From: an uncultured Clostridia bacterium
Lineage (GTDB): Bacteria > Bacillota > Clostridia > Christensenellales > UBA1242
Assembly (NCBI GenBank): GCA_944377305.1
Contig: CALWEL010000005.1
Coordinates: 5,149 to 69,148, forward strand
DNA length: 64,000 nucleotides
Direction of reading: 5' to 3'
In this document: positions 3,971 through 62,320 of the stretch, piece after piece
Layout of the letters: each line of letters starts with the position of its first letter
How positions within the stretch are numbered: position 1 is the stretch's first letter
Translations under genes and position numbers: made by a program
Notes under the pieces: model-generated
The model's database searches: none
What the model was told of the DNA's origin: nothing
Seen by the model: the letters and a program-made list of their open reading frames with translations, nothing else

Positions 3971-4107
3971 AATTTCTCCTTTACTATCGTTAGTATGTAT
4001 AAATTTAATATAAATATTTAAACTTTTCAAAAATTTTCCTACTTTTCCTATTTATATTAAGGTTTATATTTTATTTTTTATGTTAATAATCTGTTAGGAG
4101 AAAAATT

Positions 4108-4554: not shown

Positions 4555-4572
4555 GATTGTGGTAAGAAAATT

Positions 4573-5682: not shown

Positions 5683-5790
5683 AATATATTTTAAAATTAA
5701 TGCAATTAAAACCAAATTTTAAATTATGTTACTGATTCAATTGCGATATATTGAAATTTAATTAAATAAAAAATGATAAAAGGAAAGAAA

Positions 5791-6168: not shown

Positions 6169-6388
6169 AATAAATCGATAACTTTATAAAATTCTAAATT
6201 AGATATAATTTTTTGCTACTTACCTTACCCAAATTATTTAATAATAACACTATAGTGATACTAAATCTTAAATAATATAGTGGCTATATATTGTTTTAAT
6301 AAAATATATTGATTTTCATTTGATCTACTATTTATAAATTATTTAGTCGAAATCAAAATAATTATAAAATACATTAATAGATTATATT

Positions 6389-20101: not shown

Positions 20102-21166
20102 ATGATAAACATTGATAAAATTGTAAAACTTTATAGAAAAGATGGCATAACGAATAATCTAATCAAATTATTAAAAATTGATAAATCTAATGCCTTAAAC
20201 TTTAAACTTCTAAATCAGCTTCCAGATGATGTGAAAAACAATATTTTTAAAACTCTAAAATATTATCTCCTCCAACATTTATATGATAACTATCTTGATA
20301 ATGAATCTATAAAATTTTACCAAAATTTGAGCAAATCACAAATAGATTATTTAATTGAGCAAATTGATAGTCCAATTCATAAATATGGCGAAAGCGAACC
20401 TAAATTAATTGAGAATTTAAAAATCATTAATAATTTAGATAATGAGCAATTGTCACGATTATATAATATTATTTGTCAAGGGCGTCTTGGATACATATTG
20501 AAATATTATCCTTTATCAGATTTCAGCATTAAACAGATAAGCGAATTCGATAACATTTGTTTTGAAGATATAAATAATTGTGTCCATATAATGATCTATT
20601 TAATGCAAAAAAATATACATTCAGCATACAAGAAAGATTTGGAATTGAACGAAAGTATAGAGACAATCTATAAAAAAATTGCCTCACATTTTAGTTACAA
20701 AATGCTTGCAAGTTTAAAAAAATATGAAAACGAAAATTCATATTTGATAACTATATCATCTGAAGTCATTAAAATTTTATCTAAATATGTAAAAGAAAAT
20801 CAAATTGAAATTTGTTATAATGATTCTATCAATGTTAATGATTATTTGAGCATATTATATTTATTAAAAACTAATGCTAACTTAGATAGGAAAAAAGCTT
20901 ACTCTGTTATTTTAACAAACTGTAATTCGTGTGAAATAGCGACATATTTAAAACTTTTAAAAACTTCAGATTTATCTGAATCAGAATTTTATGGGCTAGT
21001 TAGACAGGCTGGAAAAAAATATAATGGGGCAAGTAGAGATATAATAGCTCAAATCGACAGATTCAACTTGCTCGAAAAGTCAATTAAACAATTGTATATA
21101 GATATGTTTATCAACCTTGATACCGCAACTGAACGTGCACGCGAAAGTATGCTTGATTTTGATTAA
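20102..21166 (+). CDS. hypothetical protein, predicted all-helical, no recognised domain
   Basis: 354-aa ORF with AGGAG RBS 7 nt upstream; no motif I can assign. Confidence 0.6.
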   Translation: MINIDKIVKLYRKDGITNNLIKLLKIDKSNALNFKLLNQLPDDVKNNIFKTLKYYLLQHLYDNYLDNESIKFYQNLSKSQIDYLIEQIDSPIHKYGESEPKLIENLKIINNLDNEQLSRLYNIICQGRLGYILKYYPLSDFSIKQISEFDNICFEDINNCVHIMIYLMQKNIHSAYKKDLELNESIETIYKKIASHFSYKMLASLKKYENENSYLITISSEVIKILSKYVKENQIEICYNDSINVNDYLSILYLLKTNANLDRKKAYSVILTNCNSCEIATYLKLLKTSDLSESEFYGLVRQAGKKYNGASRDIIAQIDRFNLLEKSIKQLYIDMFINLDTATERARESMLDFD

Positions 21167-27290: not shown

Positions 27291-29855
27291 TTATTTAACC
27301 AAGTCAATTAAATGTGCGAGAGTGTCAAATGCAACCATCGGAGATAATTTATTTATATCAATTTCACGAAGAGTATCTATGATCTCGCTTTCCACTTGAG
27401 CACTGTCATTCATTTTTTCACTTTCAAATTCTTTCATAAGTTCTTTTGCTCTATTGATTATTTCATCAGGTAATCCAGCGAGACTAGCAACTTCAATTCC
27501 ATAGCTTTTCGTAGCACTACCTCTCATAATCTTGCGCAAAAAAACTAATTTCCCTCCTATTTCTTTAATTGAAATACAAAAGTTTTTAACTCCGTCATAT
27601 AATCCCTCTAGTTGCATCAATTCGTGATAATGTGTAGCGAACAAAGTTTTTGCATTCAATTTTTTTGATAAATATTCTACCACTGCCCAGGCTATTGATA
27701 AGCCATCAAATGTAGATGTACCTCTGCCAACTTCGTCCAAAATAATCAAACTATTGTCCGTACAAAAATTTAGTATATTTGCCACTTCAATCATTTCTAC
27801 CATAAAAGTAGATTGTCCAATTGCCAAATCATCACTAGCGCCAATACGAGTAAATATTCTATCTACTATACATATATCTGCGCTTTTTGCGGGTACAAAA
27901 CTGCCAATATGTGCTAAATAAGTGATAAGAGCCACTTGACGCATATAGGTAGATTTTCCTGCCATATTCGGACCAGTTAAAATAATCGTGCGCTGATCGC
28001 TGTCGTTCAATTTACAGTCATTAGGTATAAAATCTGATCCTTTGATCATCTTTTCAACAACTGGGTGTCTTCCTTCTAGAATGTTTATCTGTTTCCCATC
28101 CGTTATATTAGGCTTGACATAATCATTTTCCACTGCCACCACACTCAATGAATAGATACAATCAATTGTAGAAATGACCACGGCAATATCTTGCATTATA
28201 TCTGTATTTTCTAATAATTGCGATTTTAGGTTCGAAAATATCTTTTCTTCCAATTTCAATGCCTCTTCGTGACTTGTCAAAACTTCTTCTTCAAATTTTT
28301 TTAATTCCTCTGTAATATATCTTTCATTGTTTGAAACCGTCTGCTTCCTTATATAATTGAATGGAACTAAATCGTTATATATTTTGCTGACTTCAATGTA
28401 ATAACCAAAAACTTTGTTATAACCTATTTTCAAATTTTTAATTCCTGTACTCTCCCGTTCGCGTGCTTGCAATTTGAGAATATATTCTTCCGCATTACTT
28501 TTCAAGTTACGCAACTTATCAAGAGACTCATTGAAACCAGATCTAATATATCCACCATCCTTCATAATCGCAGGCGGATTATCAGAAATTGTATTGAATA
28601 TTAAATTTGAAATTTCAGATGTATCGACCAATTTGGAAGCTAAAATTCTAATATTTTGATCATTAGATCGCATCAAAATTTTTTTCAAGTCTGGAGTTTG
28701 AGATAGAGATGTGGCAAGAGCAATGCAATCTTTCGGAGTAAAATTGCCATAAGCAATTTTACCTACAATTCTCTCAATATCTTGAACTCTTGACAATGTA
28801 TTTTTTAAGTCAACTCGCATTATAGCATCAAAGTATAAAGCTTCTACGGCATTTAAACGCCTATTTATTTTGTCTTTATCTTGAAGAGGTTGTCTCAGCC
28901 AATTTCTTAACATTCGCGAACCACCGCTAGTACAAGTACTATCAATCACCCAAAGCAAACTGCCGTATCTAGTATTCTCTCGCATTGTCGTTTCAATCTC
29001 TAGATTTCTTCGAGTGTTAGTATCTAAATACATAAATTGCTCATCGCGAATTAATTTTGGCATTTTTAGGTGTTTAAGCTCTCGCTTTTGAGTTTCTAAA
29101 AAATATTCAAGTAATGCGCCTACAGCTATCACACAATATTTAGAGTCAAAATCATATCCTTTGATAGATTCAATGTTATATTGCTTTAGTACTGCTCTTT
29201 GAGCATCTGAATAATTAAATGCCCAATCATAATATATATTGAACTTGAATTTATCATTAGATTGAACACAGGGCAATTCGTCAGAAATTTCTTTCATTTC
29301 AGAATTGCAAATAATTTCTGATGGCATAACACGTACAATTTGGTCGTTGATATAATTTTTGAAATTCTTGCCTGTATATTCTCCTACATTGAGTTCTCCT
29401 GTGCTAATATCGCTATAAGCGTAAGATATAGTGTTTTTATCTTTATATATACACATTATATAAGAATTTGTACTTTCATTTAACATCGATGAATCAATCA
29501 CTGTGCCAGGCGTAATTATCCTTACCACATCTCTTCTCACCAATTTTTTGCCTGGTTCTTCCATCTGCTCACAAATGGCTACTTTATATCCTCTTTCTAT
29601 CAATTTCTGAGCATAAGATTCGTATGCGTGATATGGAATTCCGCACATAGGAGCTCTATTGCTGGTACCACAATCTTTGCCCGTCAATGTCAAATCTAAT
29701 TCTTTGCTAGCGATGACAGCATCATCATAAAACATCTCATAAAAATCTCCTAATCGATAAAATAATATACAGTCACTATATTGCTCTTTTGTCGCTAAAT
29801 ATTGCACCATCATAGGTGATAGTTTATCTTGTTTGTTTATCTTTCGTTCACTCAT
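27291..29855 (-). CDS. mutS: DNA mismatch repair protein MutS
   Basis: 854 aa; TPMMVQY...GDFYE N-terminus, Walker A GPNMAGKST, DEVGRGTST. Confidence 0.95.
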   Translation of the reverse strand: MSERKINKQDKLSPMMVQYLATKEQYSDCILFYRLGDFYEMFYDDAVIASKELDLTLTGKDCGTSNRAPMCGIPYHAYESYAQKLIERGYKVAICEQMEEPGKKLVRRDVVRIITPGTVIDSSMLNESTNSYIMCIYKDKNTISYAYSDISTGELNVGEYTGKNFKNYINDQIVRVMPSEIICNSEMKEISDELPCVQSNDKFKFNIYYDWAFNYSDAQRAVLKQYNIESIKGYDFDSKYCVIAVGALLEYFLETQKRELKHLKMPKLIRDEQFMYLDTNTRRNLEIETTMRENTRYGSLLWVIDSTCTSGGSRMLRNWLRQPLQDKDKINRRLNAVEALYFDAIMRVDLKNTLSRVQDIERIVGKIAYGNFTPKDCIALATSLSQTPDLKKILMRSNDQNIRILASKLVDTSEISNLIFNTISDNPPAIMKDGGYIRSGFNESLDKLRNLKSNAEEYILKLQARERESTGIKNLKIGYNKVFGYYIEVSKIYNDLVPFNYIRKQTVSNNERYITEELKKFEEEVLTSHEEALKLEEKIFSNLKSQLLENTDIMQDIAVVISTIDCIYSLSVVAVENDYVKPNITDGKQINILEGRHPVVEKMIKGSDFIPNDCKLNDSDQRTIILTGPNMAGKSTYMRQVALITYLAHIGSFVPAKSADICIVDRIFTRIGASDDLAIGQSTFMVEMIEVANILNFCTDNSLIILDEVGRGTSTFDGLSIAWAVVEYLSKKLNAKTLFATHYHELMQLEGLYDGVKNFCISIKEIGGKLVFLRKIMRGSATKSYGIEVASLAGLPDEIINRAKELMKEFESEKMNDSAQVESEIIDTLREIDINKLSPMVAFDTLAHLIDLVK

Positions 29856-37124: not shown

Positions 37125-38045
37125 TTAAAATATTAATTCTTGCAAGGCGTTCTTAGCACTGATCTCGCCTGATTTAATTTTGTAATCTAAATTTACATAT
37201 TTTTGGTATAAATTGATATAATATTTTATACCATTTTTTGAAATAGATTGCCTAGCCATTTTAATCGCGTATGGCTTGATATTTAATATTTTTGTTAATT
37301 CAACATCATTTTTATCTATTGAAATGTATTGCATCCTTCTGAAATATTTACCTAAATATGAATATATCTCGGAAGCTGATTGCGATTTATTCATTTGATT
37401 GACTATTGCCTGATACTTAGTATAATCCTTGTTATCAATTGCATTGGTCAACATATAAATGACATATTCATTTGAATAAGAAACTAAATTTGAGACTAAA
37501 TTAAAATCAATTACAGTTATATTTTCACCTATTGAATATGATACAATTTTGTTTAATTCATTACTGATTTTTGCAGTATTAGATGAGCAAGCTTCAATCA
37601 GATAATCTAATGCCTGTTCGTGTATAGAAAGCTTCAATTTCGCAAGATAATTTAATACATAATTATTAATATCTTTGCGATCAAGCTTGGTGCAATCAAC
37701 AATTTCTCCTACCGAGAGTTTGTCAGCACCTACAGCAAGAATTACTGTTGAACTATTTGAAAAATCAAAATTATTTATATATTTGCACACCTCATTGTTT
37801 GGATTAGTTATCACAATTAGCCTGTATGGATTGTCTATTGGAAGAGTCATTAAATTGACTTCAATCTCATCCGACTTCATTTTTTCAGCATCTAATTTGA
37901 CAAAATTGAATTCTTCAAATGTTTTAATCAAATATTTTTTTAAATTATAAATCGTATGTTTTATCAAAAATATATCGTCTCCAACGATTTTATAGACGTT
38001 TTGCACTTTTGTCTTTAAACTCTTATTCAATTCGATAAACTTCAT
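37125..38045 (-). CDS. holA: DNA polymerase III delta subunit
   Basis: 306 aa; position downstream of comEC as in Bacillus; delta-like N-terminal layout (weak sequence evidence). Confidence 0.7.
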   Translation of the reverse strand: MKFIELNKSLKTKVQNVYKIVGDDIFLIKHTIYNLKKYLIKTFEEFNFVKLDAEKMKSDEIEVNLMTLPIDNPYRLIVITNPNNEVCKYINNFDFSNSSTVILAVGADKLSVGEIVDCTKLDRKDINNYVLNYLAKLKLSIHEQALDYLIEACSSNTAKISNELNKIVSYSIGENITVIDFNLVSNLVSYSNEYVIYMLTNAIDNKDYTKYQAIVNQMNKSQSASEIYSYLGKYFRRMQYISIDKNDVELTKILNIKPYAIKMARQSISKNGIKYYINLYQKYVNLDYKIKSGEISAKNALQELIF

Positions 38046-38052
38046 AATTATA

Positions 38053-39564
38053 TTATAACAAACAAAGCACCATTAATGCAACTGTTGGCAAGGATAAGAT
38101 TACTTTTGTTCTTCTATTTGCCACACAGATCCTACTAATAAAAAGCAATAATAGCATATATAATAAAATTGCTATATAATCAAAAGAAATTGTCAAAAAG
38201 TTAGATATAGGCAAATTGCCTAATATAGTCGCAACAATATTTATAAAATCAAATACATAATTTATTGGATAAAGTACAATTGTCACGAATGGTAAGACCA
38301 ATGAAATAATTGAAACAATAAAAACTATGACAAACGCAAATGTAAATATTGGTATTAAAATTAAATTAGCTATCAAGGATATAGCATTAAATGTGTTGAA
38401 AAAATGAGCCATAATGAATACCAATGCAATCATAGTAGATGCACTGATTGATAAACTATCAACTAACCATTTAGGCAATTTACAATGATTCAATGCATTA
38501 GTAATAGGTTTATTCAATATTGCTATTCCGATTACGCAAGCAAAACTCATCAAAAACCCAGGATCAAAAGCAGATAATGGGTTTATCAGATATATTATAA
38601 TACCCGACAAAGCGATTGAAGACAATGTATCATATTCTCTAAAAAACATTGGTGCTAACAACATTACTATAGACATTATAGTAGCTCTAATGATTGATAC
38701 AGCAAAATTGCAAATATACATATAAAAGATCAATAAAATCGAAACTATTATAATTCTTGGCCAATTCTTTATCCTCAGTAAATCTAAAATTTTATATAAT
38801 ATACCTACTATTATCACGACGTGAAGTCCAGATACCGCCAACAAATGCATCACACCAGATAATTTGTAGGCACTATACTGACTATCAGACAAAAGATTTA
38901 TTTCGCCAAATAAAGACGAATAAGCAATCTCAACATTTTCGTTTGTTAAACTCCCTCTTAAATTATCTTTCACATAGCTTTTTAATTTTTCAGCAAAAGT
39001 TCTATCAGTTTCTAAATATTTTATAGCATCAGCACTGACGGTCGTACTGTATTTTAATCCTTTTAGATAATAACTTGCATTAGGTGTGCCATAATAAAAA
39101 AGATCTGTTTGATAAAAATTGCTTGGTGAGAAATTTATAACACTACCAATTTCAATATTTTCAAACAAATTTGAATTGTCATAAATATAAATTATCAAAT
39201 TTTCATTAATATCTACCCCATCAAATTCGCAACTATCAGCATACACTTTAATTTTTCCATTTTCAGGTACACTGACATTATATATTCTAGCTTGAATTGT
39301 ATCAGGAGTATCTATCTCTTTTTGAAAGGCTGAAATCACATTATAATACAAAATTGCACCTAGTATAAATGATAATAATGGAATTAAAATATATTTGATT
39401 TTCTTTTTCATTATCGTTAAAATTAATAAAAAACTAAATACAACGATCACAACAATGATCGTACAAATTCTATAATCAGACAAATAAAAGACAAAAACTG
39501 ATCCTAATAAAAGGAATACAAAAACTATACATAATGGTCGATAATTAAACCATCGTGACTTCAT
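38053..39564 (-). CDS. comEC: ComEC/Rec2 competence channel family protein (no C-terminal metallo-beta-lactamase domain)
   Basis: 503 aa polytopic protein; SGVMHLLAVSGLHV motif. Confidence 0.8.
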   Translation of the reverse strand: MKSRWFNYRPLCIVFVFLLLGSVFVFYLSDYRICTIIVVIVVFSFLLILTIMKKKIKYILIPLLSFILGAILYYNVISAFQKEIDTPDTIQARIYNVSVPENGKIKVYADSCEFDGVDINENLIIYIYDNSNLFENIEIGSVINFSPSNFYQTDLFYYGTPNASYYLKGLKYSTTVSADAIKYLETDRTFAEKLKSYVKDNLRGSLTNENVEIAYSSLFGEINLLSDSQYSAYKLSGVMHLLAVSGLHVVIIVGILYKILDLLRIKNWPRIIIVSILLIFYMYICNFAVSIIRATIMSIVMLLAPMFFREYDTLSSIALSGIIIYLINPLSAFDPGFLMSFACVIGIAILNKPITNALNHCKLPKWLVDSLSISASTMIALVFIMAHFFNTFNAISLIANLILIPIFTFAFVIVFIVSIISLVLPFVTIVLYPINYVFDFINIVATILGNLPISNFLTISFDYIAILLYMLLLLFISRICVANRRTKVILSLPTVALMVLCLL

Positions 39565-42610: not shown

Positions 42611-42640
42611 AAAACGGACTAGAATAATATGTCCGTTTTA
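42611..42640 (-). terminator. intrinsic terminator overlapping stop codon of gene 42619..43332
   Basis: stem GTCCGTT/AACGGAC, then T6 on minus strand. Confidence 0.7.
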
Positions 42641-43332
42641 TTTTGAACCTGTGTCACAGGATTAATATATTTTAATATATCAGGATGACGCTTGACTATT
42701 TCATAATATTTATGTTTTTTAATCAATCCATCTATGGTTAAATATAAACCGATTCCTAAAATCAAAATACCAACAATCACACCAATTATTCCGTTAAATA
42801 CTGCGATATTTTCACTAGTAGAAGCTACGGATAATAAAGCAATCTGAGTCAAAACAATATTATTAAATGCTGTAGCAAAATTCGTAAATTTATACTCTTT
42901 AATCAGCATAGATTTGCCCTTTGCTCTCACTATTCCAACTATTGACATAGCTATACTATATGTAGCAAATGCAGCTATTGCTATAGCAATTATTAAATTG
43001 TATTGGAAATTTGACGGATAATAAATTTGAAATATTGTATATATAATATAAAATATACTCGAAACTGATAAGACTACTCCACCTCGAATATAAGAATGAA
43101 TATCCTTTTTATTATCCTTATTTTTCAAAAGACCGCGTGAACAATTATCTTTGACATATCCTATAAATAAACTATATATAGCAATAGCAATAAGAAACCA
43201 GGATCTAAATACTATTCCAACAATTACTTTAAACAAAAAGTAAAACAAGTTTTTAAAAAACGCTAACTTGCCGTAAACTATAATTTTTTTTGATTCTGGA
43301 ATCTCTCTAAATTTTTGTATCAAATTTTTCAT
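42619..43332 (-). CDS. hypothetical polytopic membrane protein (about 6 TM)
   Basis: 237-aa ORF, hydrophobic segments; no family recognised. Confidence 0.6.
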   Translation of the reverse strand: MKNLIQKFREIPESKKIIVYGKLAFFKNLFYFLFKVIVGIVFRSWFLIAIAIYSLFIGYVKDNCSRGLLKNKDNKKDIHSYIRGGVVLSVSSIFYIIYTIFQIYYPSNFQYNLIIAIAIAAFATYSIAMSIVGIVRAKGKSMLIKEYKFTNFATAFNNIVLTQIALLSVASTSENIAVFNGIIGVIVGILILGIGLYLTIDGLIKKHKYYEIVKRHPDILKYINPVTQVQNKTDILF

Positions 43333-43486: not shown

Positions 43487-44911
43487 TTAATATTGTTTGC
43501 CAAAATAAATGCGGTACTTGCTTGATTTGTCACAATATATACACTTATGAGCTTCATTATATGAATGAATTACACGTGTTTTAATTGTTGTCTTTTGCTT
43601 GATAGCTTCCTCGCATTCATTATTGCCACAATGATATGAAAGAACTACCTTTCCATCATTTACTGCTTTGACTAATTCATCAAAATCATCAGTTTCAACT
43701 ATCGCAGTTTTCAAATTTTCCTCTGCTTGCTTTAACATATTATCCTGTATAATATGCATCAAATCGTTTAATTCACTAACCACATTATCCAAGTTTATTT
43801 GCACTTTTTCATGTGTATCACGTCTGACTGCTGTCAATACGTTATTTTCAATATCTCTTGGACCTATTTCTAGACGTACTGGCACGCCTTTCATCTCATA
43901 TTCATTGAACTTCCAACCTGGTGTATTATCACTATTATCGAATTTCACTCTAATTTCTGCTTTGTTTAATTTATTATAGACTTCTTGGCATTTTTCATTG
44001 ACTCCTGGTTTATGATTTGCAATAGGCACAATCACTGCTTGAATAGGTGCAATATTTGGAGGCATACGAAGCCCACGTTCATCGCCGTGTACCATAACGA
44101 GTGCACCAATTAATCGAGTGCTAACTCCCCAACTAGTTGAATAACCATATTCTAAATCACCATTTTTATTTAAAAATCTAATGTTACTTGCTTTAGCGAA
44201 ATTCTGACCCAGATTATGAGTCGTGCCAGCCTGTAAACATTTGCCATCTTTCATAACAGCTTCCAAACTATATGTTTCTACAGCCCCTGCAAATTTTTCT
44301 TTTTCTGTTTTTCTGCCAGTAAGCGTTGGAATTGCCATAAGATTCCTTAAACAATCAGAATAAACTTTTAACATTTCTTGAGCATCTTTTTTAGCATCTT
44401 CATTACTAGCTTGAACAGTATGACCTTCTTGCCATAGAAATTCACTTGTTCGCAAAAATGGGCGAGTTGTTTTTTCCCATCGCATCACATTACACCACTG
44501 ATTCATTACCATCGGTAAATCTCTATATGATTTTATCCATTTGGCATACATTTCGCAAATTATCGTTTCACTAGTAGGACGAATAATCAATTTTTCACTT
44601 AGTTCCTCTCCTCCAGCGTAAGTTACAACTGCGACTTCTGGAGCGAATCCCTCTACGTGTTCACTTTCTTTTTTTAAATAACTTTCTGGTATTAAAAGCG
44701 GAAAATATGCATTTTGTACGCCACGCTTTTTGAATTCTTTATCTAAATAATGTTGAATATTTTCCCAAACCGCATATCCATAAGGTTTAATAACCATAGT
44801 ACCTTTCACTGGACCATAGTCGACCATATCGGTTTTCAAAATCACATCAGTGTACCACTGAGCAAAATCCGTCTTAATGTCTGCCAACTCATTTACAAAT
44901 TGTTTATTCAT
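43487..44911 (-). CDS. proS: proline--tRNA ligase (short archaeal/eukaryote-like type without INS editing domain)
   Basis: Start moved to MNKQFVNELADIKTDFAQWY (RBS GGAGAGGA); class II motifs; C-terminal zinc-binding domain; start overlaps xseB stop by 8 nt. Confidence 0.9.
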   Translation of the reverse strand: MNKQFVNELADIKTDFAQWYTDVILKTDMVDYGPVKGTMVIKPYGYAVWENIQHYLDKEFKKRGVQNAYFPLLIPESYLKKESEHVEGFAPEVAVVTYAGGEELSEKLIIRPTSETIICEMYAKWIKSYRDLPMVMNQWCNVMRWEKTTRPFLRTSEFLWQEGHTVQASNEDAKKDAQEMLKVYSDCLRNLMAIPTLTGRKTEKEKFAGAVETYSLEAVMKDGKCLQAGTTHNLGQNFAKASNIRFLNKNGDLEYGYSTSWGVSTRLIGALVMVHGDERGLRMPPNIAPIQAVIVPIANHKPGVNEKCQEVYNKLNKAEIRVKFDNSDNTPGWKFNEYEMKGVPVRLEIGPRDIENNVLTAVRRDTHEKVQINLDNVVSELNDLMHIIQDNMLKQAEENLKTAIVETDDFDELVKAVNDGKVVLSYHCGNNECEEAIKQKTTIKTRVIHSYNEAHKCIYCDKSSKYRIYFGKQY

Positions 44912-45101
44912 CCTCTCCACCTTTTTTATCAAATTCTTTCTTAATCATTATAATCTTTCCTTTTGCTTTTTCCAAATCTTTTAAGCAAGTTTTTGCCAAC
45001 TTGCAACCTTCTTCATATAATTTCAAACTCTCATCGAGATTCGCCCCATTTTCCAATTTCTTAGCAATTTCTTCTAATCTTTTAATATTTTGTTCAATCA
45101 T
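44904..45101 (-). CDS. xseB: exodeoxyribonuclease VII small subunit
   Basis: 65 aa; LEEIAKKLENG...LDESLKLYEEG typical XseB. Confidence 0.9.
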   Translation of the reverse strand: MIEQNIKRLEEIAKKLENGANLDESLKLYEEGCKLAKTCLKDLEKAKGKIIMIKKEFDKKGGEDE

Positions 45102-47141: not shown

Positions 47142-47627
47142 TTATTCTGATGGTATAATAATGATTTTATCTATCTCTACACCTAGTTGTTCTCTCACTA
47201 CTGAAGTGATTTGCGCCACTTCATCCCTTGTCAATTCTGCACTTTTTACAAAAACGTTTACATTTGAACTACTTGAAGTCACTATAGCGTCCTCAAATCC
47301 TTTGCCTCTAATTATTCCTTCGGTAACTAATTCTTTTTCCATCTGAGCAATGAGAGCCAGCTTATTCTCTTCAGCCTCTTTTTTAGCTTCCTCGCTACTT
47401 GTTGTGCTTGCAATTATTGAATCATAAAATTGAATTTCTTGAGTTCTTGTCGCCTCACGTTCTGTACGATATGATACATAAAAACTTTCTGATGTAGTAT
47501 TAGTTGTGGTGCTCATTCCTTCTGAAACAGTGCTATTTAATGCCACATTAACGTAACCTGTTATTAATAATAATGCCACCATAACTGATATAATAATAAT
47601 TTTTTTCTTTTTTGATAATGTTTTCAT
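47142..47627 (-). CDS. spoIIIAH: stage III sporulation protein AH
   Basis: 161 aa; N-terminal TM, last gene of the eight-gene spoIIIA operon. Confidence 0.8.
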   Translation of the reverse strand: MKTLSKKKKIIIISVMVALLLITGYVNVALNSTVSEGMSTTTNTTSESFYVSYRTEREATRTQEIQFYDSIIASTTSSEEAKKEAEENKLALIAQMEKELVTEGIIRGKGFEDAIVTSSSSNVNVFVKSAELTRDEVAQITSVVREQLGVEIDKIIIIPSE

Positions 47628-47635
47628 AAATCCTC

Positions 47636-48085
47636 CTATTCACTTGATAAAATTTCAATATTCCCATTATTTATATCAATAACTGCCTCAATTGCGTGTA
47701 ATACTTTTAATTTTGTTGCTGTATTGTCCACTCCTTTCGCTGTGACAATCACACCTTTTATCTCAGGAAACTCATTTAAATTAATGGTAGAGTCCGTCAC
47801 ATTCGCATCGCTCATATTTAATGTAATCATAACTTTCACATCTGACACACCTCCGATATTTGATAACGTCTCTTCTAAGTTTGATTCTAGCCTGTCTATA
47901 TATGCTGTAATAGTTAAGTTATCTGAACTGGAATCACTATTGTCCGCGTTTGAATTACTGAAGTTTGACATATATATGAGCAACAATATTACAATGAATA
48001 TAATTGCTATATAGATTTCAATATGCTTGATTTTTTTCAACTTCTCAAACCATTTGAACCCCGACTTCTTCTCATTATCACTCAT
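47636..48085 (-). CDS. spoIIIAG: stage III sporulation protein AG
   Basis: 149 aa; TM then PEIKGVIVTAKG C-terminal ring-building motif region; operon position. Confidence 0.8.
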   Translation of the reverse strand: MSDNEKKSGFKWFEKLKKIKHIEIYIAIIFIVILLLIYMSNFSNSNADNSDSSSDNLTITAYIDRLESNLEETLSNIGGVSDVKVMITLNMSDANVTDSTINLNEFPEIKGVIVTAKGVDNTATKLKVLHAIEAVIDINNGNIEILSSE

Positions 48086-48551
48086 AGAATATCATCTCCT
48101 CGTCAGTCAAATTTGTATATTCTCGGACAATCTCTTTAATGATTTCATATTTATTTATATGCTGGTTGTCCGAACTAATGACCAAATTTTCTAAATTAAT
48201 TGTACAAGAATTTATGGATAATTCGTTATTATCTATAGAATAATTAATTATAATGTCGATATTGAATAATCCTTCGTTCTCCAATTCTAAAGTTATATCA
48301 TTTTCTATTGTTGCTATTTTGTTAGTTTGAATATAATTAATCAAATTTTGATTTATTTCATATTCTTGATATTGCAAATTAAAGCCTTGATTGTTATTAA
48401 AAAATTTAATTATAGGAGTAATAATCACCGCCAGCACAAATATTGCATATATGCTCTTGATATATTTGCTAATTGTTCCGCTTGGGATTATAATATCTAT
48501 AAAGACGCCTGCTACCACTATTCCTAAAATACTTAATATATATCCTGCCAT
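48078..48551 (-). CDS. spoIIIAF: stage III sporulation protein AF
   Basis: Start moved to MAGYILSILGIVVAG (TGATG overlap with spoIIIAE stop); 2 TM; operon position. Confidence 0.75.
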   Translation of the reverse strand: MAGYILSILGIVVAGVFIDIIIPSGTISKYIKSIYAIFVLAVIITPIIKFFNNNQGFNLQYQEYEINQNLINYIQTNKIATIENDITLELENEGLFNIDIIINYSIDNNELSINSCTINLENLVISSDNQHINKYEIIKEIVREYTNLTDEEMIFYE

Positions 48552-49768
48552 CACATCACCACATTTGAGGTCATCATTACCAATCCTACTGATATCAAAT
48601 ACATAAATCCTACTGCTATAATACAAGACGATAGCATAGTTATTGACTTCGAAGTCGACATAAGAAAATTAGAAGTTTTGTTATTCCCCATAGGTTGCAA
48701 AATTGCGCTCACAAGCTTTAGTAATAAACTAAATACTACTATTTCCAACAATGGCGATATAATCGTGCTGATAATCATAAGTAGACCAACTAAACCAACT
48801 GCATTTTTGATAAGAATTGTACTAGAAAGAATTAAATCCATTCCGTCTGATAAATATCCACCCATAATAGGAATATAACTTTTAATCGTATACTTTGTCG
48901 TTCTTACGCTAAGGCTATCAAATGTACCAGCAGATATGCCCTGTATAGTAAATACTGCAAAAAATAATGTAAATACCAAACCAACACACCATTTAAATAA
49001 ACTTGAGATAAATGAATTGAATTTATCCAACTTTATATTATCTGAAAGATTATTGATAATTCCGAATACAAAGCTCATCATAAATAAAGGTAATATCAGA
49101 TATGTAAAAAAGTCTGCTACATACGTTGAGATTATTGCCACGATTGGTTGAAATACTCCCGCACTTGCAGTTGCTCCAATACCTATCATCAATGTTAAAA
49201 GTATAGGAAATATAGCATTCATCTGCGACACCATAGCTTTGATAGATGATACGCTCATCTCACTAATTGAACTTATCATACCTATTGTCAGCACTACAAC
49301 TGCCAAAAAACATACCAAATGAATCAATCCACTCGTCGACTTTTCATTGAATTTGCTCTTAATTCCATTCAATAAATTGCTTATTACACCTATAGCTACA
49401 ATTAACGAAAGCATAGGAAGATATTTCACTATCAATTCTACAAAAATTGAAAATAAACTTGCAAAAAATGAAGAATATGACACTGCATTTTCTCCTGAAA
49501 TGATTGAATATATTTTGCTTTTTATGTTATCAATTGAAAATATATTTGTGCTATTATTCTGGAATTCTTCTATCACTCCGTTAAGATCTGAAAAATCAAT
49601 TTCATTTAATTCATCTATTATTGAATTATTTAAGTCTTCACTGATTTCAACCGTTGCATTATCAACACAAAAGGTAGCCATAGGAGTAAATATAGAAAAT
49701 AATGATATCAGCAATATCATACAAATTATTGTTATTTTGTTTGAACGAACATTTTTCAATTTTTTCAT
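48551..49768 (-). CDS. spoIIIAE: stage III sporulation protein AE
   Basis: 405 aa polytopic protein with signal-like N-terminus; operon position and size. Confidence 0.85.
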   Translation of the reverse strand: MKKLKNVRSNKITIICMILLISLFSIFTPMATFCVDNATVEISEDLNNSIIDELNEIDFSDLNGVIEEFQNNSTNIFSIDNIKSKIYSIISGENAVSYSSFFASLFSIFVELIVKYLPMLSLIVAIGVISNLLNGIKSKFNEKSTSGLIHLVCFLAVVVLTIGMISSISEMSVSSIKAMVSQMNAIFPILLTLMIGIGATASAGVFQPIVAIISTYVADFFTYLILPLFMMSFVFGIINNLSDNIKLDKFNSFISSLFKWCVGLVFTLFFAVFTIQGISAGTFDSLSVRTTKYTIKSYIPIMGGYLSDGMDLILSSTILIKNAVGLVGLLMIISTIISPLLEIVVFSLLLKLVSAILQPMGNNKTSNFLMSTSKSITMLSSCIIAVGFMYLISVGLVMMTSNVVM

Positions 49769-50151
49769 AGTAATGACACCACCATATCTATTACAGTTGT
49801 CACTATAGGAAGCGCCACAAGTAAAATGACCAGTTTCCCTGCGAACAATACTTTATCCGCCACACTGCTTGCCCCTGCATCTAAACAAATATTTGCACCA
49901 AATTCCGTAATATATCCAATAGCAATAATTTTGAATAATGGAGTTAGCAGTGTCGTATCTACGCCTGTCGTTTGAAATATTCCATAAAAAGAAGACAAGA
50001 CAGAGCTAAGACTGTCAACAATCATTACAATTATTAAAATACTACCAGCAATGGAAATAATCATTGCTATTTCTGGTCGAGTTTGCTTGACTAATATTGA
50101 AGCAAATACTGTGACTAATGCCACTGCTAATATCTTTAATAATTCTGACAT
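49765..50151 (-). CDS. spoIIIAD: stage III sporulation protein AD
   Basis: 128 aa, 4 TM; operon position. Confidence 0.85.
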   Translation of the reverse strand: MSELLKILAVALVTVFASILVKQTRPEIAMIISIAGSILIIVMIVDSLSSVLSSFYGIFQTTGVDTTLLTPLFKIIAIGYITEFGANICLDAGASSVADKVLFAGKLVILLVALPIVTTVIDMVVSLL

Positions 50152-50158
50152 AATCTAC

Positions 50159-50347
50159 CTAAAAAATAAATAAAGACTGCACGGTCGTGAATAAATCTCG
50201 CACCAAATCTATCACCATAAGCAAACTAATTATTAAACCTGCAAGAGTTGTAATTGAAGCAATTTCTTCTTTTCCGCAATATTTCAATATTTGATTCACA
50301 ATAGATGTAATTAATCCAATTCCAGCCAATTTAAAAATTATTTCCAT
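50159..50347 (-). CDS. spoIIIAC: stage III sporulation protein AC
   Basis: Start moved to MEIIFKLAGIGLIT (RBS GGAGGG); 62 aa, 2 TM. Confidence 0.85.
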   Translation of the reverse strand: MEIIFKLAGIGLITSIVNQILKYCGKEEIASITTLAGLIISLLMVIDLVRDLFTTVQSLFIF

Positions 50348-50355
50348 ATTCCCTC

Positions 50356-50838
50356 CTAAATCAATAAAATTGCAAGTCCCATTGCAAATAGTAGTGAGAG
50401 TTTTATTATCATAGGACAAAGTTTATTTTTATCTTCATTTGCCTTTGCTAATTTTTCATCAACCATCAATAAAAATGATTCCATCTGATTGATTTCATTC
50501 TTTGCATCATATTTACCAATATTTTTCACTATGTCTTGCAACATTTGTTTATCTTCATCTTCTAAAACTTTTATTTTTTCCAAATAAACTTCACCCGTCT
50601 TTAAGAAATTTGAATATTCTTCAATAAATATTTTAAATTGTTTTTTTGAATTGTTTTTTTTCAAAAATTCATCAATTTTTTCTTGCCGAAATGCTAAATT
50701 GATTTTAAATTCATTTAAAAATTGCTTCAAATTATTAAAAAAGTCATATTTATCCTTAATTTGTTCACTCACTGAATATGCAATCATCATTATAGCAACT
50801 ACTAATATAATAATTAATATCCATTTGATCATACACAC
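50356..50838 (-). CDS. spoIIIAB: stage III sporulation protein AB
   Basis: 160 aa; TM at both ends; operon position. Confidence 0.8.
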   Translation of the reverse strand: MCMIKWILIIILVVAIMMIAYSVSEQIKDKYDFFNNLKQFLNEFKINLAFRQEKIDEFLKKNNSKKQFKIFIEEYSNFLKTGEVYLEKIKVLEDEDKQMLQDIVKNIGKYDAKNEINQMESFLLMVDEKLAKANEDKNKLCPMIIKLSLLFAMGLAILLI

Positions 50839-51737
50839 CTACAATAGATACAATTCAATTTCTCGTCATAAATATTTGTTAATGTTCCTGGTCCCTCATC
50901 GCTTGACAACACAACAAATCTAGAAAAAAATTTTTCATTCAAAATCTTATCAAAATTTGGTTTCTTTTTTAATTGATTCATATCTTTTGCGTGTATAGTG
51001 GCAATTACATTTACTCCACAATTTATCGCTTCTATGATTGAGTCCAAATCTTTTTCTAAATCTATTTCATCTGTTACTATTAGGTCTGGACGCATACTTC
51101 GTATACCATTTTTGAAAGCAAATTTTTTTGTACAATTAGTGTAAATATCGCAAAAACCACCCAAATCTATATTTGGTTCCCCATTTATGACTGAACAAAT
51201 TTCATTTCTTTCATCTGCTATTAAAACATTTTTTGATATATTATGTGTGTATAATTGATAGATAAAATCTCTAATAAATGTCGTTTTTCCACTTCCTGGC
51301 GGAGATATAACTAAGGTGTTTTTCACATCCTCATTTACTAAATAATCAAATGCCGGCAAACTACAATTCCTAACTACGTGAGGAATACGAATGTTGACTG
51401 ATTGAAAATCTTTCACTGTGACAATTTTATCTCCGTCTGTCACAATATTCCCACACATCCCCACACGTATCCCCTTAGCAAGGGTGATAAATCCATTAAC
51501 AATATTATCATTAAACGCATAGATAGAGTTTTCACTTGCACGTCTTACAAAATTTTCAATAATGTTTTTACTGATTTTCACGAATTCTCCATTATCATCT
51601 TTTAAATAATATTTTTTATTTTTCACAACTACAATCAAGTTTTCATTTGCACGCATACGTATTTCAGTTATCTCAGAGAAGCTGAATGTCTTTGTAATCA
51701 AATTATAAATTTCTCTATCTAAATAATCTTTTAACAT
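50829..51737 (-). CDS. spoIIIAA: stage III sporulation protein AA (secretion-type ATPase)
   Basis: 302 aa; Walker A SPPGSGKTT, Walker B LIVTDEI. Confidence 0.9.
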   Translation of the reverse strand: MLKDYLDREIYNLITKTFSFSEITEIRMRANENLIVVVKNKKYYLKDDNGEFVKISKNIIENFVRRASENSIYAFNDNIVNGFITLAKGIRVGMCGNIVTDGDKIVTVKDFQSVNIRIPHVVRNCSLPAFDYLVNEDVKNTLVISPPGSGKTTFIRDFIYQLYTHNISKNVLIADERNEICSVINGEPNIDLGGFCDIYTNCTKKFAFKNGIRSMRPDLIVTDEIDLEKDLDSIIEAINCGVNVIATIHAKDMNQLKKKPNFDKILNEKFFSRFVVLSSDEGPGTLTNIYDEKLNCIYCRCV

Positions 51738-57941: not shown

Positions 57942-58394
57942 TTAAAATTCTATATATGGTGTAATATATGCTATATCAGTAGCGTTTATAGTAAAATTTT
58001 CATCATTAAGATTGAATATGAAACCTTTTTCATCTTTTCCTAAAAGGGTCGCCACAAACTCTTTTCTATTGTCTATCTTTCTATAAAGTTTGACATTGAC
58101 CTTTTGATTTTCGTATTTCTTAAATTGCCAATCATATTTGAGAGGTCTATCCAATCCATAAGATGATACATCCAAAGTGTAAGGTGCATCATTTGTCGGA
58201 TTTAAATCATCAATGGTCTGATTGATCAGATCATTAACTTTGACGCAATCATCTATAGTCACACCACCTTCTTTGTCGATATAAACTATTAAATGCATAC
58301 CATCATTGCGCTTTACATACTCTACTTCCACTAGTTTCACCCCATCTTGAAATAGTGGCTTAATGTTTTCATAAACTAAATCTGCTACTTTCAT
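57942..58394 (-). CDS. rimP: ribosome maturation factor RimP
   Basis: 150 aa; directly upstream of nusA; SSYGLDRPL motif. Confidence 0.9.
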   Translation of the reverse strand: MKVADLVYENIKPLFQDGVKLVEVEYVKRNDGMHLIVYIDKEGGVTIDDCVKVNDLINQTIDDLNPTNDAPYTLDVSSYGLDRPLKYDWQFKKYENQKVNVKLYRKIDNRKEFVATLLGKDEKGFIFNLNDENFTINATDIAYITPYIEF

Positions 58395-58415: not shown

Positions 58416-58436
58416 AGGAGTGGCAGTGCCACTCCT
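58416..58436 (-). terminator. GC-rich hairpin 22 nt upstream of rimP start (terminator of upstream gene or rimP-nusA leader attenuator)
   Basis: 9-bp stem AGGAGTGGC / GCCACTCCT, 3-nt loop; imperfect T tract AATTAGTTTTAT follows on minus strand. Confidence 0.45.
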
Positions 58437-58484: not shown

Positions 58485-60005
58485 TTAATACAATTTTATA
58501 AAAACTTTTGCCGTAGCTGTTGCATCATTAATTGCGCGGTGCGCATTATCTAGCACAATGTTTAACTTATCTACCACAGTAGATAATTTGTAATTTTTCA
58601 ATCCAGGCAGTTTTGCTCTCGCCATCTCTAATGTGTCCATTAGCGGATTGTCAAAATTGTAAGACATCCTCTTCGCTATATTATATATAAACGAAATATC
58701 AAATGATACATTATGTCCCACCATTGTTGACCCATAACAAAATTTATAAAAATCTGGTAATACATAATTGATAGTTGGAGCATCTGCTACAGTATTATCA
58801 TCAATACTGGTTAGATCTGTGATTTCTTTTGGAATATGTCTACTAGTTTTAACGAAGGTTGAAAAGGTTTCAACAATTTTGCCTTGCAATATTTTACATG
58901 CACCAATCTCTATTATTTCATCTTTTGTAGATTCAAGTCCTGTGGTTTCTAAATCGAATACTACGAAACTGCCATCAAAAGATTTTTCTTCGGCAGAAAA
59001 TAGATCTGCTTGCTCGTAATCAACATATTTCTTAGGGAAAACCGTATGATATTCTTCGTTAACGTGTTTGAATTTAGATTTTATTTCTTCACGTTTAAAT
59101 TCGCATCTGGCTATTGAATTGGCTGTAAAATTCATTTTACCATTGAATTCCCTAAACGAACCAAAACAACATACTTTCATCCCCACTTCTATCAAATCTC
59201 CCTTTGCTTCATCTGCTTGTTTTGGAAAAATTGAGCAATACAAAAATTTATTTTCATTGCGCAATGTGAAATTATAAAAAGTGCGTTCAATTTCTTTTGT
59301 CTCTCCGTTTCTTGTGTAGTTTCGCTTGAATGACTTGCGCTGAACTGAAGTCACTTCGCCACAAATTGCAACATTTTCTACTGGAGATTTTATCTTTGTA
59401 AAATCTGTGGCTATAGAATAATCATTTGAACCTATAATATTCACTTGATTGGACAATTCGTAAACCGTCTTTTCTTCCGCCTCCTTAATCGATGACATAA
59501 GCTCGGCGTTGCTCTCTATTCGATTTTCTACGACGACTTCATCATCTTTTCTTTCGAATTGTACAAAAAAATCGGCAAAAAAACTTTCTTTCAATTTTTC
59601 AGCAATTAAAGTCTCTCTATTTAAACTCTTTGCGTATTCATACGCTGATGGTGACAACCGCAAAATAATATTTACCCTCATATTCTCTATATTGACTGAT
59701 ACATCATCATAAGTGAAATTTTTAGAAATCGCAGGAAATATATTGATAATAGTCGAATATGTATAATTTGCAATAGTACGTTTATCTAGCGGACAATTTG
59801 TAAATTTGATATCAAATTTGACATAATCTCCAATGATCTCTTTAAATTTATTCAAAAGTTCTGATCTATTTCGTTCATTCGGCTTGAACTCTTCAGGATT
59901 ATATAAAAAATTCATAACACAGGTATTATTTTTTTCTGTGTAGGTGGCGTCTTTGAATTTTAATCCATCATATAATCTATCTAAAATTTCTAATCTATCG
60001 TTCAT
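58485..60005 (-). CDS. PolC-like N-terminal/OB-fold + DEDDh 3'-5' exonuclease protein lacking PHP and polymerase domains
   Basis: 506 aa. Exo I is FVVFDLETTGL, Exo II is VGHNVSFDISFI, Exo III is HRAINDATATAKVF. The exonuclease segment and the preceding OB-like segment align by eye with B. subtilis PolC (from memory). The protein ends 8 aa after Exo III. Confidence 0.8.
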   Translation of the reverse strand: MNDRLEILDRLYDGLKFKDATYTEKNNTCVMNFLYNPEEFKPNERNRSELLNKFKEIIGDYVKFDIKFTNCPLDKRTIANYTYSTIINIFPAISKNFTYDDVSVNIENMRVNIILRLSPSAYEYAKSLNRETLIAEKLKESFFADFFVQFERKDDEVVVENRIESNAELMSSIKEAEEKTVYELSNQVNIIGSNDYSIATDFTKIKSPVENVAICGEVTSVQRKSFKRNYTRNGETKEIERTFYNFTLRNENKFLYCSIFPKQADEAKGDLIEVGMKVCCFGSFREFNGKMNFTANSIARCEFKREEIKSKFKHVNEEYHTVFPKKYVDYEQADLFSAEEKSFDGSFVVFDLETTGLESTKDEIIEIGACKILQGKIVETFSTFVKTSRHIPKEITDLTSIDDNTVADAPTINYVLPDFYKFCYGSTMVGHNVSFDISFIYNIAKRMSYNFDNPLMDTLEMARAKLPGLKNYKLSTVVDKLNIVLDNAHRAINDATATAKVFIKLY

Positions 60006-60062
60006 AATTGTGAATTATATCAAAAAATGTCAGAATTGTCAACTACAACAATTCTGACTTCA

Positions 60063-61238
60063 TTAAACAAACTGCAATATATCCACTAAGATCACAAAAC
60101 ATAACAAAACTATCAATCCAACATTGTTTATTGTATTAATCACAGTTTGTTTCAATGGTTTTTTCCTGATCCATTCAATTAGTACAAATATCATTTGAAA
60201 TCCATCAAGAGCAGGTATCGGTAACAAATTGAAAACTGCCAAGTTTATGGCGATCAGAGGCAACAACACCGCCAAGTATGCCCAACCTCCAGTCTGAGTA
60301 TACGAGGCGATGGTGTTTATCGTGGTGACTGGTCCGCCTAGCGATGTCAAAGAAAGTTGACCAGTAATCAATTGACCGAATATCACGATGATTTTCCAAG
60401 CCCATTTGCAAGTGAAAGGAACTGCCTCAATCAAACTTTCCAAAAATGAATATTTATAATTCCCAATGGCAAACTCGTTCAAATCCGCTTGCTCTGTACT
60501 ATAAAGTGACCATCCAGCATACTCACCTTTGTCATTATAAATGACATTAATATTACCCGTGATTTCAATATCTTCGCCCTGACGCCTTACATTAAAAATC
60601 ATTGATTGAGTATCAAGATAATAAGTTTTTCCATCATCAGAAAATGAAACTTTATTTTGTAAATCTTCAATGCTACCAGCATATTTAGAATAATATTCAG
60701 TCACACTCGCAGTAAGCAAATTGTTGAAATATTCATCGTGGACAAAATCTATATCAGTACCATCAATACCATAAATTACATCTCCTGTCTGAAAGGTATT
60801 ATAATTAATTGAATTTTTGTTCAAATTCTTAATTTCTACCAAATCGTAGCCTGAGGATATTAAAAGAATAAATGAAAATATTATACCGCTCAAGAAATTG
60901 AAAAAGGCACCGAAAAACAGTACAATTAGGCGTTTCCAAGGTTTTTGATTGTTAAACGCTTGGGGATTAGTTTGTCCATCTTCCCCCTCTCCTTCAAAAG
61001 CACAATATCCACCCAATGGCAGTGCTCTTAGGGTAATTTTCTCTCCATTTTTTTTGGTTTTTTGTATCAATTTAGGACCAAATCCGACACTAAATTCATT
61101 GATTTTAAATTTTAAGATTTTGCCTGCGGTATAATGCCCTAATTCGTGAATTAGCACCATAAATAGCAAAACAATGATGGCTAAAACAATATAGCCAATA
61201 TAAGTGAATACAGATGTTATACTAAGCAAATTGGACAT
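60063..61238 (-). CDS. rseP: site-2 (M50) zinc metalloprotease RseP/RasP
   Basis: 391 aa; HELGHY, PDZ-like middle, NLLPIPALDG. Confidence 0.9.
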   Translation of the reverse strand: MSNLLSITSVFTYIGYIVLAIIVLLFMVLIHELGHYTAGKILKFKINEFSVGFGPKLIQKTKKNGEKITLRALPLGGYCAFEGEGEDGQTNPQAFNNQKPWKRLIVLFFGAFFNFLSGIIFSFILLISSGYDLVEIKNLNKNSINYNTFQTGDVIYGIDGTDIDFVHDEYFNNLLTASVTEYYSKYAGSIEDLQNKVSFSDDGKTYYLDTQSMIFNVRRQGEDIEITGNINVIYNDKGEYAGWSLYSTEQADLNEFAIGNYKYSFLESLIEAVPFTCKWAWKIIVIFGQLITGQLSLTSLGGPVTTINTIASYTQTGGWAYLAVLLPLIAINLAVFNLLPIPALDGFQMIFVLIEWIRKKPLKQTVINTINNVGLIVLLCFVILVDILQFV

Positions 61239-61379
61239 ACTTTCCTTTAATTATACTAAAAAATTATAATAATTATAACGAAAAAAAGCAAGAAAAATAA
61301 TTGAAAAATGTTTTTATTTATAAAATAATACAATTTTTGCAATTTGATCTAATTTTTATTTCAAAATTTAGTTTTTACT

Positions 61380-61412
61380 ATAAAAAATAATGCATTATAA
61401 ACTGCATTATTT
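61380..61412 (-). terminator. probable terminator after cdsA
   Basis: 9-bp stem AATAATGCA / TGCATTATT; short T tract on minus strand. Confidence 0.5.
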
Positions 61413-61420
61413 ATGTTAAT

Positions 61421-62320
61421 TTAGACAATAATAATGAAGCATACTACATACAAGAATGTGACGCAGAAAATCATAGCATCGATTCTATCTAGCATTCCGC
61501 CATGACCAGGTAAGATGTTGCCACTGTCTTTTATATTTGCAACGCGCTTGATTTTGCTCTCAACCAGATCACCAATTTGGCTAACTAGCGAACCTATCAA
61601 CCCAACGATCAAAAAATGCCACCAAGAAAGATTGTACATTGTAAGAATGGTGCTCATTGAATCAACGTTATAAACCAAAGCATACACAAGCATACTGCCA
61701 GCCATCCCGCCTAGTAGACCTCCGATTGCCCCGCTAATAGTTTTATTCGGACTAATTGTCGGCGCAAGTTTTGGGCCTTTGAGCGTTCTACCAATAAGAT
61801 ATGCAAAAGTGTCTGAGAGCATAGTGATTGCGAACACGAGCAGAATGAAAGCAATTGAAAAATATTCTACACCCGCATAAAAATCAATATGGTTAATATT
61901 TAAGAATAAGCAAAACAAAAATCCAGGATAAAGACATACTAAAAGACTATTTAAACTTACCATTACATTTTCTTTAAACGTTCTGGCGTTATTTTTGATA
62001 GATTCTGTGATCAAAATCAAGCAAAAATATACAATTAATCCTGCAAGTTCAATTAGAAGAATATAATAAAATTCAAGCAATTTAAAACAACATATTAGAA
62101 TGATATAATTAAAAATTGCGTACATTGAAGAGAGATATTTATTCACTTTTTTATTGCAATTTTCCATCAAGTGACACATTTCAAAAGATGCGACCACCGT
62201 AACGCACAAAATGAATAAATCAAAGATATAATCTCCAATATCATAAGGCAAAAACTTGCTAGCGACCGCGAGTGCCACTACCAAAACTATGAAAAAACTT
62301 GTAATTGATCTTTGTTTCAT
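61421..62320 (-). CDS. cdsA: phosphatidate cytidylyltransferase
   Basis: 299 aa polytopic; KRxxxxKDxGxxxPGHGGxxDRxD signature (KRVANIKDSGNILPGHGGMLDRID). Confidence 0.9.
   Translation of the reverse strand: MKQRSITSFFIVLVVALAVASKFLPYDIGDYIFDLFILCVTVVASFEMCHLMENCNKKVNKYLSSMYAIFNYIILICCFKLLEFYYILLIELAGLIVYFCLILITESIKNNARTFKENVMVSLNSLLVCLYPGFLFCLFLNINHIDFYAGVEYFSIAFILLVFAITMLSDTFAYLIGRTLKGPKLAPTISPNKTISGAIGGLLGGMAGSMLVYALVYNVDSMSTILTMYNLSWWHFLIVGLIGSLVSQIGDLVESKIKRVANIKDSGNILPGHGGMLDRIDAMIFCVTFLYVVCFIIIV

Follow-up and report, generated by a model that had tools for sequence, protein, structure and literature searches.

A PolC-derived stand-alone protein with N-terminal, OB and DEDDh exonuclease domains in the polC slot of a gut Clostridia lineage

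PolC is the hallmark replicase of Firmicutes and an antibiotic target (e.g., of ibezapolstat), and its gene adjoins rimP and nusA in Firmicutes generally, as in the gene order of Bacillus subtilis. Clostridia use PolC together with DnaE1, and some have DnaE1 only (PMC3919608); about 6% of PolCs are without the exonuclease insertion, all but one of these being from Clostridia or Negativicutes (PMC3919608, Timinskas et al. 2014). Both that survey and PMC12926913 raise the still open question of how PolC and DnaE1 operate as one system in Clostridia. Here we describe gene X, which encodes a 506-residue protein and occupies the polC slot in an uncultured Clostridia bacterium (GTDB lineage Bacteria; Bacillota; Clostridia; Christensenellales; UBA1242), on a stretch of 64,000 nucleotides (nt) that we refer to as the window (assembly GCA_944377305.1, contig CALWEL010000005.1, positions 5,149 to 69,148 of the forward strand). 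It belongs to a PolC-derived family of stand-alone proteins, each with an N-terminal domain (NTD), an OB domain and an exonuclease, and the initial annotation of this DNA, made from the letters alone, had interpreted it largely correctly. NCBI places Onthoplasma in Christensenellales, and the GTDB family UBA1242 includes Onthoplasma and has genomes reduced to 0.67–1.6 Mb (PMC12306168); contigs of ~0.8–1.0 Mb that carry family members fit these reduced genomes.

Gene X runs from 58485 to 60005 on the minus strand, stop codon included, as a single open reading frame (ORF) with an ATG start and a TAA stop, supported by the ORF call, by Pfam, NCBIfam and PDB matches and by an AlphaFold2 model. It lies, as first annotated, in a slot delimited by rseP upstream (Peptidase_M50; 60063–61238 (−)) and rimP downstream (57942–58394 (−)), and the locus as a whole has the order frr-uppS-cdsA-rseP-X-rimP-nusA-ylxR-(99 aa)-infB-rbfA-truB. 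These labels come from a comparison of ORF lengths in the window with the genes of an identical locus (L003) labelled by Pfam (RRF, Prenyltransf, CTP_transf_1, Peptidase_M50, X, RimP, NusA, YlxR, IF2, RBFA, TruB); as the lengths are equal, the gene order is real, and the conserved Firmicute block recognized in the initial annotation holds. There are no ambiguous bases and no composition break around gene X, and its stop codon is only 90 nt from rimP, so there is no polymerase-coding remnant downstream. The initial annotation had allowed for an assembly gap or misassembly; this is excluded by the occurrence of the exact protein in identical context on at least 10 independent contigs that stem from several assemblies, and of the same arrangement in 45 species-representative genomes. 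A further claim, that proS had moved about 14 kb away, stands as to the distance (43487–44932 (−), 13.5 kb from gene X), but the word "moved" is doubtful: this proS encodes a 481-residue prolyl-tRNA synthetase of archaeal/eukaryote-like type with a ProRS-C_1 domain, and is therefore perhaps not a displaced copy of the bacterial-type proS normally found ahead of polC. In Firmicutes, dxr and ispG are commonly found between cdsA/rseP and polC. Neither is present here in any of the family members inspected (window 60063–62320; loci L001–L055), in keeping with reports of a reduced metabolism in UBA1242; at the Monoglobus locus (L056) ispG is immediately 5' of polC.

From its N-terminus the protein comprises an NTD with two beta-alpha-beta-like halves (residues 1–160; 59526–60005 (−)), an OB fold (residues ~175–308; 59082–59483 (−)), a linker (residues 309–345; 58971–59081 (−)) and a DEDDh 3'-5' exonuclease domain (residues 346–506; 58488–58970 (−)). 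Pfam placed RNase_T at residues 348–502 (1.7e-37) and, weakly and under the gathering score, the tRNA_anti-codon OB domain at residues 212–298 (5e-5). It gave no match, even at E ≤ 1, to the PHP, DNA_pol3_alpha, finger or HHH_6 domains, in agreement with the reading by eye that PHP motifs and polymerase core are missing; as a control, Monoglobus PolC showed the polymerase-core domains DNA_pol3_alpha, DNA_pol3_finger and HHH_6. All three exonuclease motifs seen by eye are present (D351 and E353 in Exo I, D436 in Exo II, H489 and D494 in Exo III), and the protein ends 12 residues past D494. Among NCBIfam models the top family was PolC (NF001688), with 186.6 bits against a cut-off of 873 and only the exonuclease part of the model covered; a second PolC model, TIGR01405, scored 159.4 bits against 1043. 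The dnaq domain model TIGR00573 was passed (109.1 bits, cut-off 71.5), the equivalog-level epsilon models failed (TIGR01406, 81.6 against 222.7 bits; NF004316, 84.6 against 196), and the DinG models TIGR01407 and NF005981 matched the exonuclease part only, below their cut-offs. The sole significant PDB sequence match of the OB region was to the exoribonuclease YhaM/Cbf1 (5.8e-6), and Pfam found no HD phosphohydrolase domain of the YhaM type. The AlphaFold2 model, built with a deep alignment, had a predicted local distance difference test (pLDDT) value of 94 and a predicted template-modelling score of 0.67, with the NTD at pLDDT ~90–96.

Our reference PolC was that of Monoglobus pectinilyticus (WP_320691106.1, 1417 residues), taken from a PLSDB record. 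A BlastP comparison with it aligned the exonuclease only (49% identity, 4e-45), and an N-terminal profile searched against PDB sequences matched nothing significantly, PolC included; the N-terminal homology required profile methods. A hidden Markov model of the family, run with hmmsearch, gave colinear matches in the N-terminal regions of five PolCs (e.g., residues 147–307 of Monoglobus PolC with 35 bits, and residues 31–322 of Acetoanaerobium PolC), and an hhalign comparison of family residues 1–340 with an alignment of PolC N-termini gave a probability of 98.5% (3e-15) over 316 colinear columns. The OB alone matched the PolC OB at 98.0% (1.8e-13), so that the likeness noticed in the middle part of the protein is one of homology. 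Taken by itself, the NTD matched the PolC N-terminus at 64% (6e-5) in hhalign and weakly, again colinearly, in hmmsearch, and is with moderate confidence a putative counterpart of the PolC NTD. When the AlphaFold2 model was compared with PDB by Foldseek, the best match was the full-length PolC of Enterococcus faecium (9qpc_A, 4.6e-20), aligned over 389 columns that take in OB and exonuclease, versus ~162 columns for matches to the exonuclease only; 9QPC is the one PolC structure with a well resolved OB, the NTD being unresolved in all (PMC12592400).

For the exonuclease, the best PDB sequence match was the Thermotoga maritima PolC exonuclease, and the family profile searched against PDB ranked PolC exonucleases (4e-64 and 2e-52) ahead of DinG (1.5e-40), epsilon (2e-28) and RNase T (1.8e-11). 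The close likeness to PolC described at the outset is thus supported by scores, which are higher for PolC than for DinG, DnaQ or epsilon, but it gets no backing from a bootstrapped neighbour-joining tree of 15 exonuclease domains of the family, 7 of PolC, 2 of DinG and 4 others (163 columns), in which monophyly of the family reached 46% and its placement relative to PolC and DinG exonucleases was without support. On the profile, structure and motif comparisons with PolC, the protein is judged to correspond to the PolC NTD, OB and exonuclease, with PHP excised and everything after the exonuclease removed. We accordingly describe it, as read from these alignments, as a PolC descendant in which PHP was replaced by a 37-residue linker and the whole polymerase core was lost.

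That linker stands where PolC has its first PHP motifs (KRVELHxHTKMSxMDA ... AITDH ... YGxE) and, in the alignment, contains none of those residues (no H-x-H, no D-H). It holds two islands that are as conserved as the catalytic residues. The first is Y319..[VI]322.P324..[YF]327, and the second is Q332-x-[NDS]-[LFM]-F336, QADLF in the window protein (58998–59012 (−)), in which among diverse family members Q is kept in 104/106, N/D/S in 91/106 and the final F in 88/106. Beta-clamp-binding motifs have a consensus of the type QL[SD]LF, and in E. coli epsilon a clamp motif, QTSMAF, adjoins the exonuclease domain. The second island resembles such motifs and is a candidate beta-clamp binder by residue conservation; we sought a positive control for the motif in the MutS, MutL and HolA of the window and found none usable. 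The best PHROG match of the protein, to PHROG 192 ("DNA polymerase exonuclease subunit", 8.9e-46), covers residues 300–505 (window 58488–59108) and reaches into the linker; since it begins at residue 300 and so takes in the conserved linker, this N-terminal extension of the exonuclease domain may be common to some phage exonuclease subunits.

The short form proved to be conserved at this locus in relatives. The protein database holds at least 120 clusters with 65–99% identity to the gene X protein, all of 500–533 residues, and a relative at 68% identity has the same context in Hadza gut assemblies. Scanning species-representative genomes with an N-terminal profile located 45 loci (58–93% identity) in the same place, with infB ~3.7 kb downstream of X at every locus long enough to show it, and three members at just 31–34% identity are still found between rseP and rimP. 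When the N-terminal 332 residues were used in an exhaustive profile search, 215 cluster representatives at 50% identity were identified; the best 150 of these are all of ~500–545 residues or fragments, and none has the length of PolC. The five DEDDh residues do not vary (107/107 sequences) among 106 full-length representatives, which are only 24–64% identical to the window protein, and in every one the C-terminus lies 12–27 residues beyond Exo III. Ratios of nonsynonymous to synonymous substitution (dN/dS), calculated against the two closest species, were 0.04–0.07 in NTD, OB, linker and exonuclease alike (0.05 for the NTD). Family members come from Candidatus Onthoplasma, "Christensenella sp. 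UBA4626" and uncultured Clostridia of human, rabbit, sheep and chicken guts, none was found in PLSDB or among viral contigs, their automatic names are inconsistent ("PolC-type DNA polymerase III", "3'-5' exoribonuclease", hypothetical), and the family as such falls within no curated model above threshold. These data show that the short form has become fixed in UBA1242, a Christensenellales lineage of reduced genomes, and in its relatives, and that it invariably occupies the ancestral polC slot.

Gene X is also predicted to be a transcription unit of its own, from a promoter and flanking terminator-like hairpins. Upstream of it is a sigma-70 promoter matching the consensus at 12/12 positions (TTGACA, 17 nt, TG-n-TATAAT; 60014–60042 (−)), preceded by a terminator-like hairpin 3' of rseP (60029–60058 (−)) whose 3' arm holds the −35 box of gene X, and a second such hairpin lies 3' of gene X, before rimP (58416–58436 (−)). 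With the ATG 8 nt past the −10 box and no Shine-Dalgarno sequence, a leaderless mRNA is probable. This layout recurs in most Onthoplasma-like loci checked (L001, L003–L049), with the ATG 6–8 nt past the −10 box; in L053 and L055, which are distant members, a Shine-Dalgarno sequence takes its place. We regard gene X as a functional gene, and neither an artefact nor a decaying leftover, on three grounds: a single fixed architecture throughout a family of deep divergence, strong purifying selection on all parts of the protein, and a consensus promoter that belongs to the gene itself. Thus, of the two alternatives offered in the initial annotation, a stand-alone nuclease derived from PolC agrees with the homologous OB, the colinear and putatively homologous NTD, the intact exonuclease and the polC slot, and a remnant left after polC relocated, in the sense of a decaying leftover, is not supported, given the conservation, selection and promoter.

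Considering these results jointly, we give roughly even odds (a probability of about 0.5) to the reading that gene X encodes an independently transcribed PolC descendant that most likely acts in trans at the replication fork, degrading DNA in the 3'-5' direction. With its OB fold it would grip single-stranded DNA, leaving the exonuclease to cut back 3' ends that are mispaired or frayed, in the service of the host's C-family polymerase (DnaE1 or a PolC without exonuclease). It could be recruited by way of the PolC-type NTD, of the candidate clamp-binding motif Q-x-[NDS]-L-F that shortly precedes the exonuclease, or of both, and would then be an analogue of epsilon, which is a separate subunit in the Pol III of E. 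coli. What we observe is an intact DEDDh site, a PolC-type OB, a conserved NTD and strong selection; service to the replicase is the role that we predict from them as the most likely. A separately encoded PolC-type exonuclease would fit a host with DnaE1 only or with an exonuclease-less PolC, and the alternatives for this host are that the PolC polymerase was lost, that PolC is split, or that gene X is a paralogue beside a normal PolC. More tentatively, and with doubts outweighing our confidence, we suggest that UBA1242/Onthoplasma may have lost the PolC polymerase in the course of genome reduction and may replicate with a DnaE-type enzyme alone, having kept NTD, OB and exonuclease as a clamp-tethered proofreading subunit. 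If true, a Firmicute lineage would have reinvented an epsilon-like subunit by breaking up an integrated polymerase, and would provide a natural experiment on the PolC NTD and OB acting alone.

Several points weigh against a trans-acting replication exonuclease. The first is that we found no polymerase partner in the window, its 10-kb extensions or the loci around X. The window is without polC or dnaE, as its longest ORF has 854 residues, and extending it by 10 kb on the left, and on the right by way of L003, added no polymerase. Loci L001–L051 (~0.9 Mb, loci around X only) have no polymerase-sized ORF, the only ORFs of at least 800 residues being infB downstream of X and three others 6–10 kb upstream, of which that of L003 encodes an LRR_5 protein; there is likewise no polymerase among the genes of the three distant loci with members at 31–34% identity. 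Second, according to PMC12926913, the DnaE1 of Clostridia as a rule brings an active PHP proofreader with it, so a separate one is not obviously needed. Third, homology of the NTD by itself is just moderate, and the small exonuclease tree gives no supported placement. Fourth, the linker, including the surroundings of QxxLF, was modelled at pLDDT ~80–95, for which reason the motif, instead of being free for docking, may lie packed against a domain. Finally, the substrate may be DNA or RNA, DNA being the one predicted here. As for other replication and repair genes, holA (Pol III delta) follows comEC in the window (37125–38045 (−), 38053–39564 (−)), so that a clamp-loader component is present in the genome, and mutS (27291–29855) and mutL (25326–27275) are in the window also.

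The protein might instead be a general DNA repair or recombination exonuclease, degrading single-stranded DNA 3'-5' in the manner of ExoX or ExoI, which would be derived from PolC and untied from the replicase (serving, e.g., mismatch repair or end processing). An OB combined with a DEDDh domain is a sensible design for a single-stranded DNA nuclease, ExoX and ExoI are among the Foldseek structural matches, the protein has no epsilon-like C-terminal tail for binding a polymerase since it ends so soon after Exo III, and in Clostridia both DnaE1 and PolC are usually equipped with proofreaders already. We hold this to be plausible but less likely, as the PolC-type NTD under strong purifying selection and the QxxLF-like motif suggest that contacts with the replisome or clamp were kept, and no repair genes adjoin gene X at the loci examined. 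Still less probable is a 3'-5' exoribonuclease of RNA maturation or turnover, co-located with rimP-nusA-infB-rbfA-truB. The RNA and ribosome genes that surround gene X, the name "3'-5' exoribonuclease" borne by some members, the YhaM/Cbf1 match of the OB and the fact that RNase T is likewise a DEDDh enzyme all speak for it; yet the neighbours are those of the ancestral polC slot, gene X is predicted to be transcribed separately from them by its own promoter with a terminator on each side, the exonuclease scores far above RNase T for PolC, DinG and DnaQ, and the automatic names of other members are "PolC-type DNA polymerase III" or hypothetical. A non-functional polC remnant (truncated pseudogene) or an assembly artefact, to which so short a gene in the polC slot and the low score against the NCBIfam PolC model (186.6 vs 873) might point, is scarcely credible given the same full ORF on many independent contigs and in 45 species, an architecture fixed at 24–64% identity, invariant catalytic residues, low dN/dS, a conserved promoter and terminator, and the 90 nt to rimP. 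PADLOC matches were to generic DEDDh domains, and a defence role is ruled out by the conserved housekeeping context.

The window and the records consulted showed some other features. Many sporulation genes are kept despite the reduced genome (~0.7–1.6 Mb in this lineage), at 1315–7045 and 47142–51737, and include a sigF-like sigma factor with spoIIAA/AB upstream (L057), spoVAC/AD/AEB, yunB and a spoIIIAA-AF operon. Three ORFs, of 667 (2027–4030 (−)), 354 (20102–21166 (+)) and 237 residues (42619–43332 (−)), had no Pfam match at the thresholds used, and the first of these is kept beside the sigma factor in related contigs (L057–L059). An ORF of the phage integrase family (17087–18133 (−)) sits amid housekeeping genes and is adjoined by genes for a PadR-like regulator and an ATP-binding cassette transporter. 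In PLSDB, the "plasmids" NZ_CP154629.1, NZ_CP084075.1, NZ_OY725740.1 and OY725841.1 are whole chromosomes or chromosome fragments with chromosomal polC (Acetoanaerobium, 2.63 Mb; Fusobacterium, 2.11 Mb; pieces of Monoglobus and Subdoligranulum).

The polC slot of a whole lineage of gut Clostridia thus holds only the non-polymerase third of PolC, under strong selection, and replication in this lineage may depend on DnaE1 by itself or on a PolC that is split. Nature has here provided a separation-of-function construct for two little-understood parts of PolC, its NTD and OB, and the family also explains an inconsistent annotation that could mislead surveys of PolC gene content. No such protein is described in the surveys PMC3919608 and PMC12926913, or in what a full-text literature search returned. 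Among described systems, YhaM is unlike the gene X protein in that the two match in the OB only, gene X having no HD domain. The phage subunits of PHROG 192 are, like gene X, separately encoded polymerase-associated exonucleases, but gene X is a chromosomal core gene in a housekeeping slot, with no phage context and no viral-contig match. DinG-type proteins (Staphylococcus aureus DinG, PDB 8ZEF) and the stand-alone Firmicute DEDDh proteins (PRK06807, PRK07883) have exonuclease domains 36–44% identical to that of gene X, and the tree does not cleanly separate them; unlike DinG, the gene X protein has no helicase and ends after the exonuclease, the models of these proteins scored below cut-off, and they are without a PolC-type NTD and OB. 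E. coli epsilon (DnaQ) likewise is a separately encoded DEDDh exonuclease of proofreading type with a clamp-type motif adjoining the exonuclease (a candidate motif in our case), but the motif precedes the exonuclease in gene X and follows it in epsilon, the gene X protein has an extra NTD and OB and is without the C-terminal segment that binds the PHP of alpha, and at ~28% identity its origin appears to be independent, from PolC. PolC itself (E. faecium 9QPC; Monoglobus WP_320691106.1) shares with gene X the slot beside rimP-nusA, the colinear OB and DEDDh exonuclease and, with moderate confidence, the NTD, and differs in its size (~1420–1490 vs 506 residues), in having PHP, palm, thumb, fingers and HhH, and in carrying the exonuclease inserted in PHP, as opposed to after the OB and the 37-residue linker. 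Finally, the exonuclease-less PolCs and DnaE1-only genomes of Clostridia and Negativicutes (PMC3919608) show that in Clostridia the PolC exonuclease and polymerase are separable and that PolC can be lost; there, the polymerase is found without the exonuclease, and here the exonuclease without the polymerase, so that gene X would encode the complementary product.

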